Below are positions 4,374 through 32,536 of a DNA stretch of 36,657 nucleotides, piece by piece. Both the position numbers and the translations under genes were made by a program. Position 1 is the first letter of the stretch. Each line of letters opens with the position of its first letter. The notes beneath the pieces were generated by a model. That model worked only from the letters and a program-made list of their open reading frames with translations, made no database searches and was not told where the DNA came from. Source of the stretch: Candidatus Nomurabacteria bacterium RIFCSPHIGHO2_02_FULL_38_15 (lineage in GTDB: Bacteria; Patescibacteriota; Minisyncoccia; Phycocordibacterales; UBA9973); the NCBI GenBank assembly GCA_001785575.1, contig MFUC01000009.1:1-36657 (forward strand), given 5' to 3'.

Positions 4374-4384
4374 GAGTTAGACCA

Positions 4385-4405
4385 CTTGGGAGTTGAGCTC
4401 CCAAG
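4385..4405 (+). repeat. Hairpin repeat family D (cttgggagNtNagctcccaag), terminator-like position
   Basis: 8-bp stem cttgggag/ctcccaag lying 12 nt after the stop of 2961..4373. A near-identical copy is at 20184-20204. Confidence 0.7.
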
Positions 4406-4412
4406 TAAGAAT

Positions 4413-7856: not shown

Positions 7857-7866
7857 GGCTAAATTT

Positions 7867-7953
7867 ACCTCACCCCTGACCCCTCTCCTGGCAAAAGGAG
7901 AGGGGAATCGTGAAAGTCCATCGTCTAATCAGGAGAGGGATTTAGGGTGAGGT
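7867..7953. repeat. GC-rich nested-palindrome element, family A (copy 1)
   Basis: Outer arms acctcaccc / gggtgaggt. Inner hairpin cccctctcc-N8-ggagagggg. Homologous to 24578-24625 and 32404-32513. Confidence 0.8.
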
Positions 7954-7961
7954 TGCGCTTT

Positions 7962-8003
7962 TTCGGCTCCTCCCCCTTGATAAGGGGGAGGTTGGGAGGG
8001 GGG
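7962..8003. repeat. GC-rich hairpin repeat, family B (copy 1)
   Basis: ttcggcTcctcccccttGAtaagggggaggttgggagggg. 10-bp stem cctccccctt/aagggggagg. Second copy at 18960-19000. Confidence 0.8.
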
Positions 8004-8038
8004 CTTTGCGGGCACGGATTTTATGTATAAAAATTCAC

Positions 8039-8067: not shown

Positions 8068-8951
8068 CCTACCTGTATTCCTTGAAAATTGCATCGCTAC
8101 TATGGAACCAAATCCAACGCCCATAAATGGGGTTGGATCGGGGTCTTAAAATACTAGAAAGTATATTCGCGCAGCCTGTGCGAATCTCCATAAGTAGTGC
8201 ACACACTATGCCAAGCGGTTGGCATTCCTAGCTTGTGAAAATATATTTATGAAATATATAAAGAAGGAGCACATTTTTCCTTGCAATTAAATTTGGGAGA
8301 TAATGTGAATTAGTGTGTGGAGAATCAGACAAAATGTAAGTAAGTATATACATTATGGAAAGTATGACCAATGGTTAATACATTTCCTAATGGGATAATA
8401 AGAGCATATGGCGGATGCCTAGACTCTCAATAGCGATGAAGGACGTGGGAGGCTGCGATAAGCTTCGGGGAGGTGTCTACAACCTTTGATCCGGAGATTT
8501 CCGAATGGGGAAACCCTACATAGCAAACCTATGTAATTAACACTCATAAGAAGTGTTGATGCGCACCCTGGGAAGTGAAACATCTCAGTACCAGGAGGAA
8601 CAGAAAACAAACCCTAACTATACGTTGGGGAATATTTCCTAAGTAGCGGCGAGCGAAAAGGAAAGAGCCCAAACCTGTCTAACATTGAGCACATATCAGT
8701 ATGAAGCTTTGTACTAAATATTGTGTGTTCAATGTTGGACGGGGGTTGTAGGGTAGCAACTTCGAATTAACGAGAAAAGTCAAAAAATTGCACAATAGAT
8801 TAAGTTGTTGGAAACCAACACCATAGACGGTGATAGTCCGGTAATCGAAATTCTGCAAACTTTTTTGTTGCTATACCTGAGTAGCTCAGGAAACGAAAAG
8901 CTTGAGCGAATCCAGCAGAACTAACTGCTAAGGCTAAATATATTGAGAGAT

Positions 8952-8994
<43 letters not shown>

Positions 8995-9325
8995 GAAAAG
9001 GGAGTGAAATAGATCCTGAAACCATATGCTTACAAGGAGTCGGAGCGGACGCGATTTATCGTGTTCCGTCACGGCGTGCCTATTGAAGAATGAGCCAACG
9101 AGTTTATTTGTGTTGCTGGCTAAGTGGAAACCCCACGGAGCCTCAGGGAAACCAAGTGTTAATAGCGCGAAAAAATTAAGTAGTACAAATAAGACCCGAA
9201 GCCAAGTGAGCTACCCATGAGCAGGTTGAAGTTTGTCGAAAGACAAATGGAGGACCGAACCGGTGAGCCGTACGACACTCTCGGATGACTTGTGGGTTGG
9301 AGTGAAAAGCTAATCGAACTTGGTA

Positions 9326-9363
<38 letters not shown>

Positions 9364-10440
9364 ACACCGTACCCTCTGGGGGTAGAGCACTGGAAGATTT
9401 TGATAGGGAGAAATCTCGCAAAATCTACCAAACTCCGAATACCAGAGACCAACTAGTGTGCAGTTAGACAGTGGGGGCTAAGCTCCACGCGTCAAAAGGG
9501 GAACAGCCCAGATCTCAGGTTAAGGTCCCTAAATCATAGTTAAGTGCATCTTAAGGAGGTAATATTTCTCTGACAATGAGGAGGTTGGCTTAGAAGCAGC
9601 CATCCTTTAAAGAAAGCGTAACAGCTCACTCATCAAGAGATTTTGCACCGAAAATAATCGGGGCTAAACTATGTACCGAAACTGAGGATTTGTCCCGCCT
9701 TTGGCGGGATGACTGGTAGGCGAGTATTCGATTCAGCTGTGAAGGTAAAGGGGTGACCCATACTGGAGCGTATCGAAGTAAGAATGTTGGCACAAGTAAC
9801 CGCAAGGAGGGTGAGACCCCCTCCCGCCGAAAGATCAAGGTTTCCTTGGCAATGTCAATCAGCCAAGGGTTAGTCGGGCCTAAGGGGATGGTGAAAACCG
9901 AACTCGATGGACACATGGTTAATATTCCATGACTTTCTATATATGTGATGAAGGGACGAAGGGTTGTACCAATCGCTTCTTATTGGATTGAAGTATATGG
10001 TATGAGGATGTTTGGTAGGCAAATCCGCCAGACACAAATCCGAGTACAGTTTAAATGCCAGGGTTCGCCTTGGTAAATGAATGGGAGCACGCTTCCGAGA
10101 AAATCTTCTAAACTTTGTATATAGAAAACCGTACCGCAAACCGACACAGGTGATCAGGTCGAGTAGACCAAGGCGAACGAGTGAGTGATCTTCAAGGAAC
10201 TCGGCAAAAAAGCAGCCGTAAGTTAGCAATAAGGCTTGCCCCTATTTATTTAGGGGCCGCAGCGAAAGTTTCTCTGGCAACTGTTTACCAAAAACACAGC
10301 TCCCTGCGAACACGTAAGTGGATGTATAGGGGGTGACGCCTGACCAATGCTAGAAGGTTAAATATCGACGTTGTCCCGATGTAAAGTCGGGTTGGTGATT
10401 GATACAAGCCCTAGTGAATGTCGGCCGTAACTATAACGGT

Positions 10441-11201
10441 TATTTTGCTACGCTTTATTGATTTTGTCAATAAAGAAACAAAATGGGCCGTTACAAAATT
10501 TGGCTATATGCTGGAACATACGCAAAACACAGTACCATACGTTGGTGAAAATCTGTGAATGATACGTACAATCAGCAGGAAAGATGTATTGAGTCATAAA
10601 ATAATATGACAAAAAATAAAAATTTATTTTGGTATGTGGCAGGTTTCATTGATGGTGAGGGAAGTTTTAATATTTCTTTTACTAAGCAAAAATATGCCCA
10701 TAATAACCAAGGTTTTAAATGGTTGATTCATGTTTGTTTCCAAACATATCAACACGAAGACCATCGAGATATTCTCGAATTGTTACAAAAACAAGTTTTT
10801 CACACAGGTAGAATTTATAGGAAATCAAGTCCGTATCATGTTTTTACGTATACGGTTGATAATCCTAGAAATTTGTGTGAAAAAATTATTCCATTCTTTA
10901 ATAAATATAAGTTAATTATTAAAGATAAAGACTTTCAACTTTTTAAAGAAGTTGTACAAATGCTTTTAGATAAAAAGCATCTAACAGAAAGTGGATTCAA
11001 AAAGATATTGGATATCGCATTTAAAATGAATGCAAACGGCAAACAAAGAAAGTATTCAAAAGAATATATTCTTGAAACCGTAAAAGAACAATTATCAAGA
11101 AAATAAACTCAATACAAATCCTCAGAGACTATACGCCAAACACGACACAATAATCGTGAAGATATAGTCCACAAGGTTTATAGAAATATAAAATTCTTAT
11201 G
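10441..11201 (+). mobile_element. Group-I-like intron in 23S helix 69 region (after U1923, E. coli numbering by my alignment)
   Basis: Exon sequence ..gccgtaactataacggt | 761 nt | cctaaggtagcgaa.. The 5' exon ends in U and the insert ends in G. It carries a LAGLIDADG ORF. Confidence 0.85.
10606..11106 (+). CDS. Single-motif LAGLIDADG homing endonuclease (intron-encoded)
   Basis: LFWYVAGFIDGEGSFNISF motif. 166 aa with one motif, so a homodimeric I-CeuI/I-CreI-type architecture. Located inside the 23S intron. Confidence 0.9.
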   Translation: MTKNKNLFWYVAGFIDGEGSFNISFTKQKYAHNNQGFKWLIHVCFQTYQHEDHRDILELLQKQVFHTGRIYRKSSPYHVFTYTVDNPRNLCEKIIPFFNKYKLIIKDKDFQLFKEVVQMLLDKKHLTESGFKKILDIAFKMNANGKQRKYSKEYILETVKEQLSRK

Positions 11202-11872
11202 CCTAAGGTAGCGAAGTACCTTGTCGGGTAAGTTCCGACGCGCACGAATGGCGTAATGACTGGAGAACTGTCTCGAAGATTAGCTCGGTGAAAATACAAT
11301 ACCGGTGAAGATGCCGGTTACCTGCAGATAGACGAAAAGACCCCGGAAGCTTTACTGCAACTTGATATTGAGCATATGTTAGTACTGCGTAGCATAGGTG
11401 GGAGAGGTTATGTGCATCCTTTTGGGGGTGTAATACTCGTCAGTGAAATACCACTCTGTATGTATGTATGTTCTAATTAAGACGGCAAAAACGTCTTGAG
11501 ACAGTATCTGGTGGGTAGTTTGACTGGGGCGGTCTCCTCCTAAAGAGTAACGGAGGAATTTATTAAGGTTAGTTAGGCGCGTATGGAAATCGTGCCGATA
11601 GTGCAAGGGCATAAACTAGCTTAACTGCAAGAGGTACATCTCGAGCAGATACGAAAGTAGAACCTAGTGAACCGACGGTTCGTGTTAGACGCGGCCGAAG
11701 ATTAATGGATAGAAGCTACTCCGGGGATAACAGGCTAGTTCCGCCTAAGCGTCCATAGCGACGGCGGAGTTCGGCACCTCGATGTCGGCTCACCTTAACC
11801 TGGGGGTGGAGAAGCTCCCAAGGGTATGGCTGTTCGCCATTTAAAAAGGTACGCGAGCTGGGTTCAAACCGT

Positions 11873-12431
11873 CCAGTACTTTAGGTTTTAGTTTCTAGTG
11901 ACTAGTTTCTAGTGAAATGCAAATTTTTCTAGAACCTAGCACCTAGTTACTAGCACCTTGAGTCTTGGACCCATTTGAATCCGAGGTAATTGCACTGTTG
12001 GAGAATTGCAATTAAAAAGACATCATCACGGCGGCTACATATAGTAATATATGTATGCACATTCAACTTATATCGGTAAAATCCTAATGCGTAAGCATGG
12101 ACAATACCGAGGGAAGATTATTTGTATTGAAAAGTGAAATCTGGAAATAACCTAAATATTTAATAGAGTGCTTCGACGCTTGTAGCCTCTGATGCAATGT
12201 TAGCCTGTACCATTAGAACACAGAGCACAAACATGGAATATCAATGGTCCAAAGAATCACTAGACAAAGGGAGGTTTAATAACAAGTGATTAAACCTCCA
12301 TACTTTGTCTTCACTTTTCAGTACAAATAATTACCCGTAGAGACTAAACGTTGAAGTCCCACTACGCTCTAATGAGCTACGCGGGATATGTTATAGTCCG
12401 ATCCCTTCAGTAATGAAGGTAAACGTAGATG
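11873..12431 (+). mobile_element. ORF-less group-I-like intervening sequence in 23S domain V (I-CreI-type site, ~2593)
   Basis: ..gggttcaaaccgt | ~559 nt | cgtgagacaggttggtc.. restores the conserved AACGUCGUGAGACAG motif. The boundary is ambiguous by 1 nt; the chosen one gives 5' exon U and terminal G. No ORF >=60 aa. Long-range pairings are present (gaaaagtgaa / ttcacttttc). Confidence 0.7.
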
Positions 12432-12831
12432 CGTGAGACAGGTTGGTCTCCTATCTACTGCAGGCGTTGACTCTTGAAAAGATTCGTCCCTAGTACGAGA
12501 GGACCGGGATGAACTGACCTCTGGTGTACCAGCTCTTTTGCCAAAAGGATCGCTGGGTAGCTAAGTCGGGAATGGATAACCTCTGAAAGCATCTAAGAGG
12601 GAAGCCAACTTTAAGATGAGGAGTCGGTATGAGGACCCTAGAAGATTACTAGGTTGATAGGCATTAGGTGTAAGCACCGCAAGGTGTTCAGCCAAGATGT
12701 ACTAATTGTCCCATTCCTATTAGGTAATGTGTAAATCATTATCATATTTTCATAATCGTATATATTTTTATAGTCTGATTCTAATGCAAGCTAGATAGAG
12801 CCTAAAGCTCTATCTACAAATAAATCGAATA

Positions 12832-12952
12832 CTTTGTGTTGGTGATTCATCGTAGGGGTCACACCTCTTCCCATTCCGAACAGAGTAGTTAAGCCTTATT
12901 GAGCCGATGATACTCGTTTTACGGGGAAAGTAGGTTGTCGCCAGCACAAAGT
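12832..12952 (+). rRNA. rrf: 5S rRNA
   Basis: tttgtgttggtg..cccattccgaacagagtagttaagcc..gggaaagtaggt..cgccagcacaaag. Helix I extends into a precursor stem (aatcgaatac / gtattcgatt). Confidence 0.9.
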
Positions 12953-12987: not shown

Positions 12988-13034
12988 CAATTCAAAAGCC
13001 CGTTGTTTTATTACTTCGGGCTTTTGAATTGGTA
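12988..13034 (+). terminator. Terminator hairpin after 5S; copy A of a 41-nt direct repeat
   Basis: caattcaaaagcccg-N13-cgggcttttgaattg. Positions 12994-13034 are repeated exactly at 14009-14049. Confidence 0.8.
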
Positions 13035-13395: not shown

Positions 13396-13433
13396 TTTTA
13401 TGTTATAATTTAGTCATATGACATGGGCGGGGA
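13396..13433 (+). promoter_or_regulatory. Extended -10 promoter, copy A of a 38-nt direct repeat
   Basis: ttttatgttataatttagtcatatgacatgggcgggga is identical to 14132-14169 and contains TGTTATAAT. Confidence 0.7.
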
Positions 13434-13469
13434 TTGTTTCCACATGACTTTTATGATATATTTCTATAT

Positions 13470-13772
13470 ATGGATACTCCAATAAAGGGTAAATTTAGGC
13501 ACATTGTTTTTAAAGATGGCAACACTTGGTATGCTGTGGCTCTTGAGTTTAATATTGTTGAATCAAGTGATGATCCAAAGCTTGCATTTTTTAATTTAAT
13601 CCAAGCAGTTAGTGGCTATGTGCAATCGGCTAAAAAAATAAAAGGTTCTCGCTATCAATCTTTAAATCAAATATCTGATCCTGAATACGAAAAGTTGTGG
13701 TCGATTCTTCACTCAACCAAGCCCGTCAAGTCTCCATATGCTATAGACATGTACGGGTTCTCTAGAGTTTAA
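13470..13772 (+). CDS. hicB: HicB-like antitoxin (tentative); ATG at 13470 preferred over the TTG at 13434
   Basis: Small protein with the block WYAVALEFNIVESSDDPKLAFFNLIQAVSGYV, resembling the HicB N-terminal fold. Its stop overlaps the hicA start (TAATG). Confidence 0.5.
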   Translation: MDTPIKGKFRHIVFKDGNTWYAVALEFNIVESSDDPKLAFFNLIQAVSGYVQSAKKIKGSRYQSLNQISDPEYEKLWSILHSTKPVKSPYAIDMYGFSRV

Positions 13773-14005
13773 TGCCTAAAAGATTCTTCAATTGGGCGTT
13801 TAGAGATGTAGAATCCTTTTTGAAAAAGAAAGGTTTTAAATTAAATTATACAAATGCAAGTCACTTTTACTATATTGGTTTTTATAATAAATTAGTTCGT
13901 AATGTTTGCGTACCCTTTCATGGCAGTAAGATAATTAAACCCAGAACTTTAAAAGGTATTATTTTACAATCAGGCATAGACCAAAAAGAGTGGTTTGAAA
14001 AATAG
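13772..14005 (+). CDS. hicA: HicA-family mRNA interferase toxin
   Basis: FLKKKGFKLNYTNASHFYY..VPFHGSKIIKPRTLKGIILQSGI matches the HicA/YcfA pattern (G-x-x-x-x-x-x-SH .. P.H..K.I....L..IL.Q.G). Confidence 0.7.
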   Translation: MPKRFFNWAFRDVESFLKKKGFKLNYTNASHFYYIGFYNKLVRNVCVPFHGSKIIKPRTLKGIILQSGIDQKEWFEK

Positions 14006-14008
14006 CAG

Positions 14009-14049
14009 AAAAGCCCGTTGTTTTATTACTTCGGGCTTTTGAATTGGTA
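14009..14049 (+). terminator. Copy B of the 41-nt terminator repeat
   Basis: Exact repeat of 12994-13034. It lacks the outer 5 nt of the 5' arm that are present in copy A. Confidence 0.75.
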
Positions 14050-14059
14050 AATGTTTTTA

Positions 14060-14080
14060 TACGGAGGTCTTGCCTCCGTA
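14060..14080 (+). repeat. REP-like hairpin, family C (tacggaggtcttgcctccgta)
   Basis: Same motif as 24638-24656, 25354-25376 (inverted) and 25977-25997. Confidence 0.8.
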
Positions 14081-14131: not shown

Positions 14132-14169
14132 TTTTATGTTATAATTTAGTCATATGACATGGGCGGGGA
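14132..14169 (+). promoter_or_regulatory. Extended -10 promoter, copy B of the 38-nt direct repeat
   Basis: Identical to 13396-13433. TGTTATAAT lies 8 nt upstream of the ATG at 14154. Confidence 0.7.
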
Positions 14170-18944: not shown

Positions 18945-18959
18945 AGACCCCCTCCGCCT

Positions 18960-19000
18960 TTCGGCACCTCCCCCTTACTAAGGGGGAGGTTGGGTAGGGG
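18960..19000. repeat. GC-rich hairpin repeat, family B (copy 2)
   Basis: ttcggcAcctcccccttACtaagggggaggttgggtagggg, between convergent secF and UDG genes. Confidence 0.8.
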
Positions 19001-19010
19001 TATTTTGTGG

Positions 19011-19604
19011 CTAATCTTTTATCTTTTCTAAAGCCAAAGGGATTTTTTGAAAGTCTTCAAGGAGTGTTTCGCGCAAGGCGCCATTGTACATAGCGGCGGC
19101 GGGGTGGTACAGGGCGAAAAAGTATTTAGTAGGGAAGTTAGGAATTTCTTTGATTAATAACTTACCATGCACTTCGCCAATTTTAGCTTCAGGGAAGAAG
19201 TTTGACATGGCGTGGCGCCCCAAGAAAATAATTAATTTAGGCTGTATAAAATTAAGCTCAGCCAATAGCCATTCCCGACAGGCGATTTTTTCATAATCAT
19301 CAGGGTCGCGATTCTCGGGTGGGCGGTATTTTACTGTATTAGTTACGTATACATCATCACGCGTCAGTTTTATACTTTCAAGCATGGTGTTTAAAAACTG
19401 TCCGGCTCGGCCAATAAATGGTATACCTTGCAAGTCCTCGTCTTTGCCGGGGGCCTCGCCAATAAAGACAATCTCAGCCTTTGGATTACCATGGCCAAAA
19501 ACTGGCTGGGTGGCTGTAGCCTTTAATTCACACCGGCAAGCCTCATGCTGGGCCTTTTGAAGCTCTAAAAGCTGTGCTTTATGATTCTTTAGCTCCTCGT
19601 TCAT
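19011..19604 (-). CDS. Uracil-DNA glycosylase, family 4
   Basis: GEAPGKDEDLQGIPFIGRAGQFL motif, N-terminal Cys residues (ACRCEL), HPAA near the C-terminus. Confidence 0.88.
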   Translation of the reverse strand: MNEELKNHKAQLLELQKAQHEACRCELKATATQPVFGHGNPKAEIVFIGEAPGKDEDLQGIPFIGRAGQFLNTMLESIKLTRDDVYVTNTVKYRPPENRDPDDYEKIACREWLLAELNFIQPKLIIFLGRHAMSNFFPEAKIGEVHGKLLIKEIPNFPTKYFFALYHPAAAMYNGALRETLLEDFQKIPLALEKIKD

Positions 19605-20160: not shown

Positions 20161-20204
20161 GCCATAAGTCCGACTTATGGCTACTTGGGAGCTTAGCTCC
20201 CAAG
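20161..20204. repeat. Tandem hairpin repeats, family E (20161-20181) plus family D (20184-20204)
   Basis: gccataagtc-c-gacttatggc, then cttgggag-ctta-gctcccaag, between convergent genes. Copies at 5284-5304 and 4385-4405. Confidence 0.8.
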
Positions 20205-24577: not shown

Positions 24578-24625
24578 ACCTCACCCCCTGCCCCCTCTCC
24601 AGGCAAGCTAGAGAGGGGAACCGAA
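24578..24625. repeat. Family A element, truncated copy (5' outer arm + first inner hairpin only)
   Basis: acctcaccccctgccccctctcc-aggcaagcta-gagaggggaaccg. No matching 3' outer arm. Confidence 0.7.
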
Positions 24626-24637
24626 TTTTATGAACAT

Positions 24638-24656
24638 ACGGAGGCCTTGCCTCCGT
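24638..24656 (+). repeat. REP-like hairpin, family C (forward orientation)
   Basis: acggaggc-ctt-gcctccgt, 25 nt upstream of the Y1 transposase ATG. Confidence 0.8.
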
Positions 24657-24680
24657 CTATTTTTTTGATAAAATTAATAT

Positions 24681-25340
24681 ATGTCTATAAGAAAAGTCAC
24701 ATTTGCTTTTGATGAATATTACCATGTGTATAATCGTGGGAATAGTAAACAAAAAATATTTCATGATAAACAAGATTATGAACATTTTGTTTTGTTATTA
24801 TTGATTTTAAATAATGATAAAAATTTAGAGTTAAGAAATTTAAGTAAAGATTTTTTAGTAGATTTGAATAATGTTAATAGTTTAGTATCTATTGGCGCCT
24901 ATGTACTAATGCCTAATCATTTCCACATACTTCTTACTGAAAAGATCGACGGAGGCATTAGTAAGTTTATGCAAAAAGTTAGTACTGCTTATGTTATGTA
25001 TTACAATAAAAAATATACTAGAACAGGGTCACTTTTTGAAGGGAAGTTTAAATCACAACATTTGGATACTGATAATTATTTAAAATATATATTTTCATAT
25101 ATCCATCTTAACCCTATAAAGCTAATTGATAAAAACTGGAAAGAGGAGGGTATAAAAAACAAATCAACCACCTTGATATATCTGGAAGGATACCAGTATT
25201 CAAGTTATATGGATTACTTAGGTATAGAAAGGTTGCAAAATAAAATCTTAAATAAATTTGATTTTCCAGACTATTTTCCGTCAACCAAGCTTTTTTCAAA
25301 AGAGGTGTTTACGTGGTTAAGTTTTAAAGACAGCTATTAG
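24681..25340 (+). CDS. IS200/IS605-superfamily Y1 (HUH) transposase of the REP-associated (RAYT) type
   Basis: YHVYNRGN, HUH motif in LMPNHFHILL, GSLFEGKFKS, and catalytic-Tyr motif FSYIHLNPIK. No accompanying tnpB. Confidence 0.8.
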   Translation: MSIRKVTFAFDEYYHVYNRGNSKQKIFHDKQDYEHFVLLLLILNNDKNLELRNLSKDFLVDLNNVNSLVSIGAYVLMPNHFHILLTEKIDGGISKFMQKVSTAYVMYYNKKYTRTGSLFEGKFKSQHLDTDNYLKYIFSYIHLNPIKLIDKNWKEEGIKNKSTTLIYLEGYQYSSYMDYLGIERLQNKILNKFDFPDYFPSTKLFSKEVFTWLSFKDSY

Positions 25341-25353
25341 TATGTTTTTAGCA

Positions 25354-25376
25354 CTACGGAGGCAAGACCTCCGTAG
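25354..25376 (-). repeat. REP-like hairpin, family C (inverted orientation)
   Basis: ctacggaggcaagacctccgtag is the reverse complement of ctacggaggtcttgcctccgtag. Lies 14 nt after the transposase stop. Confidence 0.8.
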
Positions 25377-25432
25377 TTACATTTATAATATAATTTTTTA
25401 GTTTACCCTATAGAGATGATATAATTATGATT

Positions 25433-25963
25433 ATGAAGTTATATAGATTTAGTCCAATTAAAAACAATCAAGAATTACTAGACGCAATAAAGCACACGCA
25501 CTATATGTGTTTTACATTGTGTAAAGAGACTTTTGGTAAGTATCTGTCAGTTGCTGGTAATGTTGGTATATTTTGTCATTATGAAGATGAATATAAAACA
25601 CTTACACAAATACGTAAAGAATTAACGGAGCCCTCTAGCAACCCTAATCAAAAATATTTTTGTCTGCATGAGCCAATTATTATTTCCGCTAAAGATGACA
25701 TTCCTGAAACAATATATACACATCTTTATATTCGAAAACCTGATCAATATAGAGGACAAGTAGGGGATGTGGATTTTTTTATAAGTGATAACGAATACAT
25801 AGAACTTAAAAAATCACTAGAAGGTAGCGCAAAAATAAATGGAGCTAGAGTTTTTGACAGGCCCGATTTAGACATGATTGAATTATCTAATCCTGGCATA
25901 GACGCTTTGGCATATATTAGTACAAAATTAATGACCGAAAAGGTTAGGGTTAAAATAGTTTAA
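25433..25963 (+). CDS. Hypothetical protein (176 aa from ATG 25433; alternative ATG at 25427)
   Basis: ORF bracketed by family C hairpins. TGATATAAT box ends 7 nt before the ATG at 25433. No recognisable domain. Confidence 0.5.
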   Translation: MKLYRFSPIKNNQELLDAIKHTHYMCFTLCKETFGKYLSVAGNVGIFCHYEDEYKTLTQIRKELTEPSSNPNQKYFCLHEPIIISAKDDIPETIYTHLYIRKPDQYRGQVGDVDFFISDNEYIELKKSLEGSAKINGARVFDRPDLDMIELSNPGIDALAYISTKLMTEKVRVKIV

Positions 25964-25976
25964 TCGTGTATTTAAG

Positions 25977-25997
25977 TACGGAGGTCTTGCCTCCGTA
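25977..25997 (+). repeat. REP-like hairpin, family C (forward orientation)
   Basis: tacggaggtcttgcctccgta, identical to 14060-14080. Confidence 0.8.
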
Positions 25998-27055: not shown

Positions 27056-28689
<1,634 letters not shown>

Positions 28690-32403: not shown

Positions 32404-32513
32404 ACCTCACCCCCTAGCCCCTCTCCTGGCAAGGAGAGGGGGAATCGCGAAAGTAAGCGTCTGTAGCTTAAAGCCCCTCTGCCAGCTCTGCTGGAGAGGG
32501 GTAGGGGTGAGGT
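32404..32513. repeat. GC-rich nested-palindrome element, family A (most complete copy)
   Basis: Outer arms acctcaccccct / aggggtgaggt. Inner hairpins cccctctcc-tggcaa-ggagagggg and cccctct-N14-agagggg. Confidence 0.85.
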
Positions 32514-32536
32514 GGACTAATGCTATACTATACTCA

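Follow-up and report, generated by a model that had tools for sequence, protein, structure and literature searches.

In the REPtron of Escherichia coli, a single-copy Y1 HUH gene stands between inverted copies of a palindrome, which also occurs scattered over the genome (Ton-Hoang, 2012, as cited in PMC3479197). These sequences, the repetitive extragenic palindromic (REP) elements, are imperfect palindromes with an unpaired 5′ GTAG guide, they occur in hundreds of copies, and cleavage takes place at CT dinucleotides outside the hairpin (Messing, 2012, PMC3479197). Another branch of the TnpA-Y1 family, subclass 2.1 (Quentin et al, 2018, PMC6006769), is the same as group 1 of the REP-associated tyrosine transposases (RAYTs; Bertels et al, 2017, PMC5581495) and largely the same as the TIRYTs (Di Nocera et al, 2013, PMC3733652). 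REP-like hairpins were reported to be absent from the vicinity of subclass 2.1 genes (PMC6006769), TIRYT genes have GGGGWSAS-type terminal inverted repeats on both sides (PMC3733652), and 12 occurrences of the flanking 16-mers were reported for group 1 (PMC5581495). Here we describe a Y1 HUH gene and the short hairpins at its ends in Candidatus Nomurabacteria bacterium RIFCSPHIGHO2_02_FULL_38_15, a metagenome-assembled genome of the Rifle aquifer series. The window, by which we mean the whole stretch of DNA analysed, is one entire contig of 36,657 bp (MFUC01000009.1), and counts for the source genome cover only that contig. In the enzyme the HUH/Tyr active site is intact and the fold resembles that of TnpA-REP; the cognate hairpin has a constrained tip and a stem that is free in sequence and stays paired. 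We consider it likely that this is a REPtron/TIRtron-like locus, that is, a single-copy chromosomal class-2 Y1 HUH enzyme together with a short perfect hairpin that it recognizes.

The Y1 HUH gene and its flanking hairpins

The motif ACGGAGG-N5-CCTCCGT is matched exactly at four places in the window (14061–14079, 24638–24656, 25356–25374 and 25978–25996), whereas shuffled sequences give an expectation of 0.01. In this order the loops read TCTTG, CCTTG, CAAGA and TCTTG, which puts the copy at 25356 in inverted orientation with respect to the three others; the loop that gives this asymmetry is 3–5 nt long. The upstream hairpin (ACGGAGGC-ctt-GCCTCCGT, 24638–24656, plus strand) ends 24 nt before the ATG of the Y1 gene, and the downstream hairpin starts 12–15 nt after the stop codon (25353–25377, minus strand; ACTACGGAGG-caaga-CCTCCGTAGT when read on the plus strand). 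A third copy (TACGGAGG-tcttg-CCTCCGTA, 25977–25997, plus strand) lies between the open reading frame (ORF) ORF178 and trmD, and a solo copy (14060–14080, plus strand) lies 10.6 kb from the gene. Folded as single-stranded DNA, the four extended hairpins have energies of −8.3 to −10.9 kcal/mol (z −4.6 to −7.5). The bases that flank the motif in the window (TA or CTA on the left, TAG or TA on the right) are themselves within the palindrome. The 5′ GT[AG]G foot of REPs is absent from the window hairpins and from the stems of other lineages (AGTACAAGG, GCGTTAGG, GACTAGG and similar). The preliminary description of this DNA had proposed a four-copy hairpin with one inverted copy and a gene bracketed by inverted copies of its own hairpin, and exact matching and the loop sequences (CCTTG upstream, CAAGA downstream) bear out both.

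The gene itself (24681–25340, plus strand, ATG start) encodes 219 aa and contains the motifs PNHFHILL and YIHLNP, with H80 and H82 as the HUH histidines and Y140, within YIHLNP, as the catalytic tyrosine. In an alignment of 50 homologues with 34–71% identity, H80 and H82 (NHFH), Y140 and several N-terminal positions are invariant. The SS pair of the C-terminal tail (YSSY) is near-invariant in the same alignment, and conservation reaches at least 90% at H142, N144 and P145 of the Y...NP motif, which is the tyrosine signature of class 2 (Quentin et al, 2018, PMC6006769). The protein matches the Pfam model PF01797 (Y1_Tnp) over residues 69–142 with 31.8 bits, above the cutoff of 23. With the NCBIfam equivalog NF047646 (REP_Tyr_transpos) it scores 41.1 bits, under the cutoff of 80. 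A confident AlphaFold2 model (predicted local distance difference test, pLDDT, 92; predicted template modelling score 0.89) was compared with the PDB by Foldseek. The top match, at E 1e-6, is the complex of E. coli TnpA-REP with a REP hairpin (4ER8), and next come the TnpA proteins of ISDra2, IS608 and IS200 (E 2e-4 to 1e-3); a sequence-profile search against the PDB likewise places 4er8 first (E 0.009). The earlier reading of the ORF as a RAYT-type Y1 protein is thus upheld by the invariant catalytic residues, the Y...NP motif and the best fold match.

Within this class the protein lies far nearer to subclass 2.1 than to E. coli RayT. It carries the second motif set of that subclass (NH[YF]H as NHFH, Y[IV]HLNP as YIHLNP, and the SS of the proximal tail as YSSY), and FE/FQ replaces the W motif, with LFEG here and LFQG in many homologues. 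Its length is close to the roughly 220–240 aa of the TIRYT branch (about 238 aa in subclass 2.1), and as in that branch the gene is chromosomal and low-copy, with a moderately abundant flanking repeat that is comparable to the 12 of group 1. When the family profile was compared by hhalign with a 234-aa protein from an Iodobacter plasmid, which is flanked by GGGGTCAG terminal inverted repeats, the probability was 99.7% (E 3e-25, 38% identity) and the alignment took in the N-terminal and SS regions. The same comparison with E. coli RayT gave a probability of 74% (E 3e-5) at 18–21% identity. Since the motif set and these two comparisons agree, we assign the enzyme, on sequence grounds, to the RAYT-type class but to the TIRYT/group 1 branch that was reported without REPs, and not to canonical RayT.

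The locus departs from its relatives in several ways. Unlike the TIRYT genes, it has at each end a short perfect hairpin with an invariant tip, and no C-terminal helix-turn-helix domain was detected. A sequence fitting GGGGWSAS, GGGGTGAG, occurs once near the gene, 94 nt upstream and inside another repeat, and not downstream. We considered TIRtron-type GGGGWSAS repeats and rejected them, as the 9 matches in the window (3.1 expected) come from another repeat family and from the rRNA genes and do not flank the gene. The resemblance to the E. coli REPtron lies in the arrangement, one Y1 HUH gene between inverted copies of a palindrome that is also found elsewhere, in the closest structure and in the shared Y...NP motif. 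Unlike the E. coli REPs, the hairpins here have perfect stems of 7–12 bp, the conserved part is the loop and tip, and copies are few.

A consensus scan suggests that the upstream hairpin also contributes to transcription. A −35-like hexamer, TTGCCT (24647–24652), is formed by the loop and 3′ arm of the hairpin, and an extended −10-like box, TGaTAAAAT (24669–24674, plus strand), ends 6 nt before the ATG. The layout TTGCCT-N16-18-TAnnnT-N6-10-ATG was found in 10 of 12 loci, and the final spacer is exactly 6 nt in eight. This suggests a leaderless mRNA with a promoter built into the upstream hairpin, and, with such a promoter, one would expect the upstream copy to keep the TCTTG orientation, as it nearly always does.

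Covariation, dispersal and inheritance in Patescibacteria

We compared 11 homologous loci with protein identities of 53–68%, nine of them obtained by protein look-up and two from among the hairpin matches. In all 11 there is a perfect hairpin upstream of the start codon and a second one within a few nucleotides of the stop codon or overlapping it. Ten loci have an upstream gap of 21–28 nt; the gap of L082 is 41 nt, with a partial 3′-arm copy placed at the usual distance. Stems differ by lineage (ACGGAGG, GCGGAGG, TCTAGG, GTACAAGG, GCGTTAGG, GTGCTAGG and GACTAGG), yet both ends of any one gene carry the identical stem. The tip AGG-[T/C]CTTG-CCT is constant across loci, except in one lineage with TCCGG, and the outer 4–6 bp vary by lineage yet remain paired. 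In a set of 27 hairpins, 93% of cells pair, compensatory changes occur in six of nine pairs, and the three tip pairs never vary. The covariation score was 0.71 compared to 0.15 for shuffles, none of which reached 0.71 in 500, and slid controls scored at most 0.18.

Stem and protein appear to have changed together only in part. Protein identity is 68–71% where stems are the same or similar, against a background of 52–65%, yet L061 and L062 share the ACGGAGG stem of the window and are its most divergent relatives. Orientation is likewise not uniform. Ten of the loci have single flanking hairpins. In seven of them, as in the window, TCTTG lies upstream and CAAGA downstream, and the other three are direct. 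Inverted orientation, which the preliminary description had taken as the hallmark of a REPtron, thus characterizes most loci but not all. In L036 an inverted hairpin doublet stands on both sides of the gene (9904–9973 and 10661–10739), an arrangement that resembles the bacterial interspersed mosaic elements (BIMEs) of E. coli. The name REPtron is supported by the link of gene and hairpin in 11 of 11 loci; it fits less well with the missed RayT cutoff, the absent GT[AG]G foot and the closer relationship to TIRYTs. The sole relative in IMG/VR (24% identical) is bracketed by its own, different palindrome.

In two loci the downstream hairpin lies inside the 3′ end of the coding sequence (L061, 824–842; L062, 1801–1820, minus-strand gene) and so supplies the last codons; the proteins end in ...NTEALPP... 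or ...HTEARPP. Some gene copies seem to be decaying, as there is an in-frame stop in L061 and a frameshift in L055.

The hairpin also occurs away from the gene. The exact 19-mer was found at 33 loci in GTDB representative genomes, where about 1–9 would be expected by chance. About twenty of these are in metagenome-assembled genomes (MAGs) of Patescibacteria, and none of the 33 holds the gene. Several copies lie on separate contigs of single MAGs, with 2–5 exact copies per individual MAG. A search of a metagenome subset with a 20-mer gave 41 loci, three of which hold a close homologue of the gene and one a 29%-identical Y1 relative. Inverted doublets away from the gene, similar to BIMEs or to the REP doublets called REPINs, were detected in L009 (2625–2666, 4-nt spacer) and L070 (6417–6525, 71-nt spacer), and tandem hairpin copies in L077. 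A third copy that brackets a neighbouring ORF recurs in the window, L081, L083 and L096. For most RAYT loci no distal copy was found within 10 kb either side of the gene. The preliminary description regarded the hairpin as dispersed and not as a local terminator. The second part is supported by the solo copies at 14060 and in other Patescibacteria contigs and by the T-run, which follows only the 24638 copy, so we rejected plain terminators; the first holds weakly, because copy numbers look low and distal copies are mostly absent near the gene.

Many of the solo ACGGAGG hairpins in metagenome contigs are accompanied by nested ladders of tandem partial copies. The ladder unit consists of a few flanking bases, one arm and 0–5 nt of loop, repeated up to four times; one breakpoint is variable and clusters within the loop, and the second is at the stem foot. 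Ladders were seen in L044, L051/L069, L055, L060, L065, L067, L068, L077 and others, and smaller versions adjoin the gene in L036, L061 and L082. No such partial duplications were found in the window. The ladders are probably real sequence, because the same ones recur in independent samples, and either action of the enzyme at the loop or replication errors induced by the hairpin may have left them.

The gene belongs to a large family. In the protein search, 7,898 of 8,000 scored candidates passed E 1e-5, the best 120 were all 62–100% identical over the full length, and a library clustered at 50% identity gave 300 clusters below 1e-30. Named matches are Nomurabacteria, Minisyncoccia or ‘Patescibacteria group’. 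The suggestion that a RAYT would be unusual in the candidate phyla radiation must therefore be dropped: there are thousands of homologues, hundreds of them match at 62–73% identity along their whole length, and some already bear the names RayT, transposase or REP-associated tyrosine transposase in PGAP and IMG. Neither of the two surveys that define subclass 2.1 and group 1 (PMC6006769 and PMC5581495) mentions Patescibacteria, Parcubacteria, Saccharibacteria or TM7 when searched for these names.

Two pairs of loci, each from related genomes, share an insertion site, L038 and L097 (rpoD-x-gene-dsbA) and L036 and L096 (PG_binding-x-gene). In other lineages the gene is at other sites, in some cases in a different slot of regions whose gene order is otherwise shared (L081 versus L082; L036 versus L083). 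We looked for an empty site by means of the identical KH protein and found nine places, all with the order rpsP-KH-gene-ORF178-trmD. Collections of plasmids and phages contained only distant relatives (28–36% identity over the core). Because the family is large, pairs of loci share sites and plasmids and phages hold only distant relatives, the sequence data fit a gene that is mostly inherited vertically, occasionally relocated and single-copy better than they fit an active insertion sequence. The ORF just upstream of the gene differs within both site-sharing pairs: a 62-aa ORF in L038 and a Zeta-toxin/AAA kinase-like ORF in L097, and unrelated ORFs of 176 aa in L036 and 191 aa in L096. This hints that the slot adjoining the upstream hairpin is a variable site.

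Neighbouring genes and other repeats of the window

The block of gene and hairpins sits inside a cluster of rpsP, a KH protein gene and trmD. Its neighbours in the window are rpsP, the KH protein gene, ORF178 and trmD, and no tnpB-like gene was found among the window genes, as the preliminary description had stated. PADLOC gave no matches for either the Y1 enzyme or ORF178. The latter (25427–25963, plus strand), a conserved hypothetical protein recognized as an ORF and by homologue search, lies between the hairpin copies at 25356 and 25978 and has no match in Pfam or NCBIfam. More than 1,000 homologues were found at E ≤ 0.001, the best 120 of them 64–76% identical. The best matches include Patescibacteria and records labelled Woesearchaeota and ‘archaeon’, so that the family shows an unusually high conservation across domains, between Patescibacteria and DPANN archaea. 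An AlphaFold2 model (pLDDT 87) showed weak fold matches to the glyoxalase/vicinal oxygen chelate superfamily (1k4n, template modelling score 0.56). We considered ORF178 as a hairpin-bounded mobile cassette and rejected this, as the one archaeal homologue examined, in L094, is without flanking hairpins and the bracketed neighbours at other loci are mutually unrelated; for the same reasons we regard it as a probable neighbour that does not belong to the system. A longer similarity around the hairpin pair that flanks ORF178 (45 nt, 78%) was also discounted, since outside the hairpin the sequence is AT-rich and matches at about 58%.

The solo hairpin at 14060 lies 10 nt past a terminator hairpin and downstream of a hicA cassette. 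This two-gene cassette (13434–14005) encodes ORF112 and a HicA toxin (PF07927, E 7e-11) and is surrounded by two duplications of 100% identity, a 41-nt terminator hairpin (12994–13034 and 14009–14049) and a 38-nt promoter-like segment (13396–13433 and 14132–14169). The cassette seems to have been inserted with, or by duplication of, its regulatory ends, and the solo hairpin stands between the second copy of the terminator and the second copy of the promoter.

A family of repeats resembling miniature inverted-repeat transposable elements (MITEs), with units of about 95–110 nt, is present at 7866–7957 and 32404–32515 and, truncated, at 24578–24627. The units lie between the inverted ends ACCTCACCCC...GGGGTGAGGT and enclose a hairpin, CCCCTCTCC-ggca-GGAGAGGGG. 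The truncated left half is 10 nt upstream of the upstream hairpin of the gene. The ends contain GGGGTGAG, which fits the TIRYT consensus GGGGWSAS, but its polarity is opposite and it does not flank the gene.

Two further palindrome families were found, one at 7961–8024 and 18959–19022 (CCTCCCCCTT-nnn-AAGGGGGAGG, with a shared 64-nt context of 77% identity) and one at 4384–4406 and 20184–20204 (CTTGGGAG-nnn-CTCCCAAG). Two more MAGs of Patescibacteria (L002 and L030) have a hairpin of the CACTTGGGTGC type directly beside the ACGGAGG hairpin. The preliminary description had suggested that the enzyme may have spread the other GC-rich palindromes; because the loops of both families are unlike the TCTTG tip and the conserved AGG-YCTTG-CCT is absent, we see no such tie.

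The rRNA genes of the window (23S, 8386–12726; 5S, 12838–12946; 16S, 27056–28689) are split and carry inserts, and 16S is unlinked from 23S-5S. The 23S gene, with a model length of 2,925 nt, extends over 4,341 nt and contains ORFs. CTAG-rich inserts in the 23S and 16S genes are 82% alike (11925–11958 versus 28273–28306), and the 16S insert is an inverted repeat with 59-nt arms.

Mechanism, alternatives and implications

If it works like IS608 TnpA and E. coli TnpA-REP, the Y1 protein of a REPtron/TIRtron-like locus would bind the hairpin when it forms on single-stranded DNA and read its invariant tip. Cleavage would proceed through a 5′-phosphotyrosine intermediate at Y140 and be followed by rejoining, as the solved complexes of IS608, ISDra2 and TnpA-REP suggest (PMC3479197), and this cutting and rejoining might seed or move hairpin copies at low frequency. 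The upstream hairpin would double as the −35 box of the gene, at the spacing described above, and enzyme binding or hairpin extrusion could throttle the gene's own expression. As the hairpins lack the GT[AG]G guide and are conserved in the tip, recognition probably works in another way than in E. coli.

Several points weigh against this reading. Copy numbers look low, with four copies in 36.7 kb of which three are clustered at the gene, and dispersal in the source genome rests on one 36.7-kb contig. The downstream loop is direct in three loci, which an orientation-strict REPtron model does not predict. Without the canonical guide, the E. coli mechanism is not simply transferable, and cutting by the enzyme and movement of the hairpin are assigned by analogy. 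The subclass placement is based on motifs and two pairwise or profile comparisons, not on phylogeny. In addition, the invariant tip could be kept partly as a −35 box and not as a protein recognition site, but the downstream and solo copies keep the tip too.

We weighed two other explanations of the locus. It could be an autonomous minimal insertion sequence of the IS200 type, in which the hairpin-tnpA-hairpin unit of about 740 bp (24638–25377) transposes whole, the hairpins are its left and right ends and the solo hairpins are remnants or mini-derivatives. The unit is indeed extremely compact, with conserved boundaries, and like IS200 it is a tnpA-only unit of about 0.7 kb between small hairpins, one of them directly upstream of tnpA, with the fold and catalytic residues of the superfamily and no tnpB. 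The gene is found in unrelated contexts across lineages and in different slots of syntenic regions, both hairpins have the same orientation in three loci, as in the ends of IS200 and IS608, and the degraded copies in L055 and L061 would also be expected of such an element. The protein, however, has the tyrosine motif Y...NP and not the Y...Q of IS200-type TnpA (subclass 1.1), and at E ≤ 0.1 it has no match to the NCBIfam IS200 model NF033573; these two results also speak against the classical IS200 TnpA that the preliminary description had named as an alternative. At 219 aa, compared to about 150 aa for IS200 TnpA, it has an extra N-terminal segment and a conserved C-terminal tail of 70 aa. 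At both ends of the unit stands the same palindrome, instead of a left end and a right end that differ. There is no second Y1 copy in the window and there are no near-identical paralogues among the fetched loci, the position of the gene is conserved within lineages, most hairpin copies are solo and without gene remnants, and the family is essentially absent from plasmids and phages. We regard this explanation as unlikely. We give even less credence to the possibility that the hairpins are host regulatory elements, i.e. terminators, insulators or promoter elements that recur by selection, and that the Y1 gene is a domesticated enzyme of unrelated role that borrows them as promoter and terminator. 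The upstream copy was scored as terminator-like and provides a −35-like hexamer at the right spacing in most loci, copies are intergenic and often directly follow other terminator hairpins, and a few genomes outside Patescibacteria share the 19-mer at what is apparently one orthologous site. Against this stand the single T-run among the four window copies and the occurrence of the same stem within a locus and of different stems, with the same tip, across lineages, which fits a cognate repeat specific to a protein. Moreover, the hairpin brackets the gene whatever adjoins it and can overlap the 3′ end of the coding sequence, and it is mobile repeats, not terminators, that typically show inverted doublets and nested partial duplications.

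A further, rather improbable proposal keeps the enzyme-hairpin pair but places its action elsewhere. Rep and relaxase-type HUH enzymes nick at origin hairpins. In a similar way the Y1 enzyme might act at the invariant tip and nick within or beside the TCTTG loop, as part of a Patescibacteria-wide, self-regulated system for editing single-stranded DNA with a mechanism unlike those of IS608 and E. coli TnpA-REP. Nicking in the loop would explain why the loop is conserved while stems drift, why the loop is occasionally flipped, like the flip and flop states of hairpins, and why the variable breakpoints of the ladders cluster in the loop. Gene-adjacent hairpins would then also serve as junctions for the swapping of unrelated genes, an idea that comes from the ORF beside the gene, which is hairpin-bracketed in the window and in three homologous loci and differs between syntenic genomes.

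Systems of this kind are known, and the locus is only partly new; what is new are the conserved-tip hairpin, its covariation, its overlap with a putative promoter and the presence of hairpins in a branch thought to lack them. Our literature search found no paper that links RAYT or REPIN systems with Patescibacteria. RAYT-like genes are among the most widespread ‘domesticated transposases’, and to our knowledge their largest branch (group 1/subclass 2.1/TIRYT) has no known DNA substrate or function. The Patescibacteria clade offers a compact candidate substrate, an invariant 11-nt tip (AGG-YCTTG-CCT) on covarying stems, that is suited to short oligonucleotides, and a well-defined pair of repeat and enzyme in very small genomes, where mobile and repeated DNA has been little studied. 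The predicted promoter overlaps the hairpin in a conserved way, which points to a simple autoregulatory circuit; nicking in the loop, if true, would give the TnpA-Y1 family a third way of recognizing its substrates.

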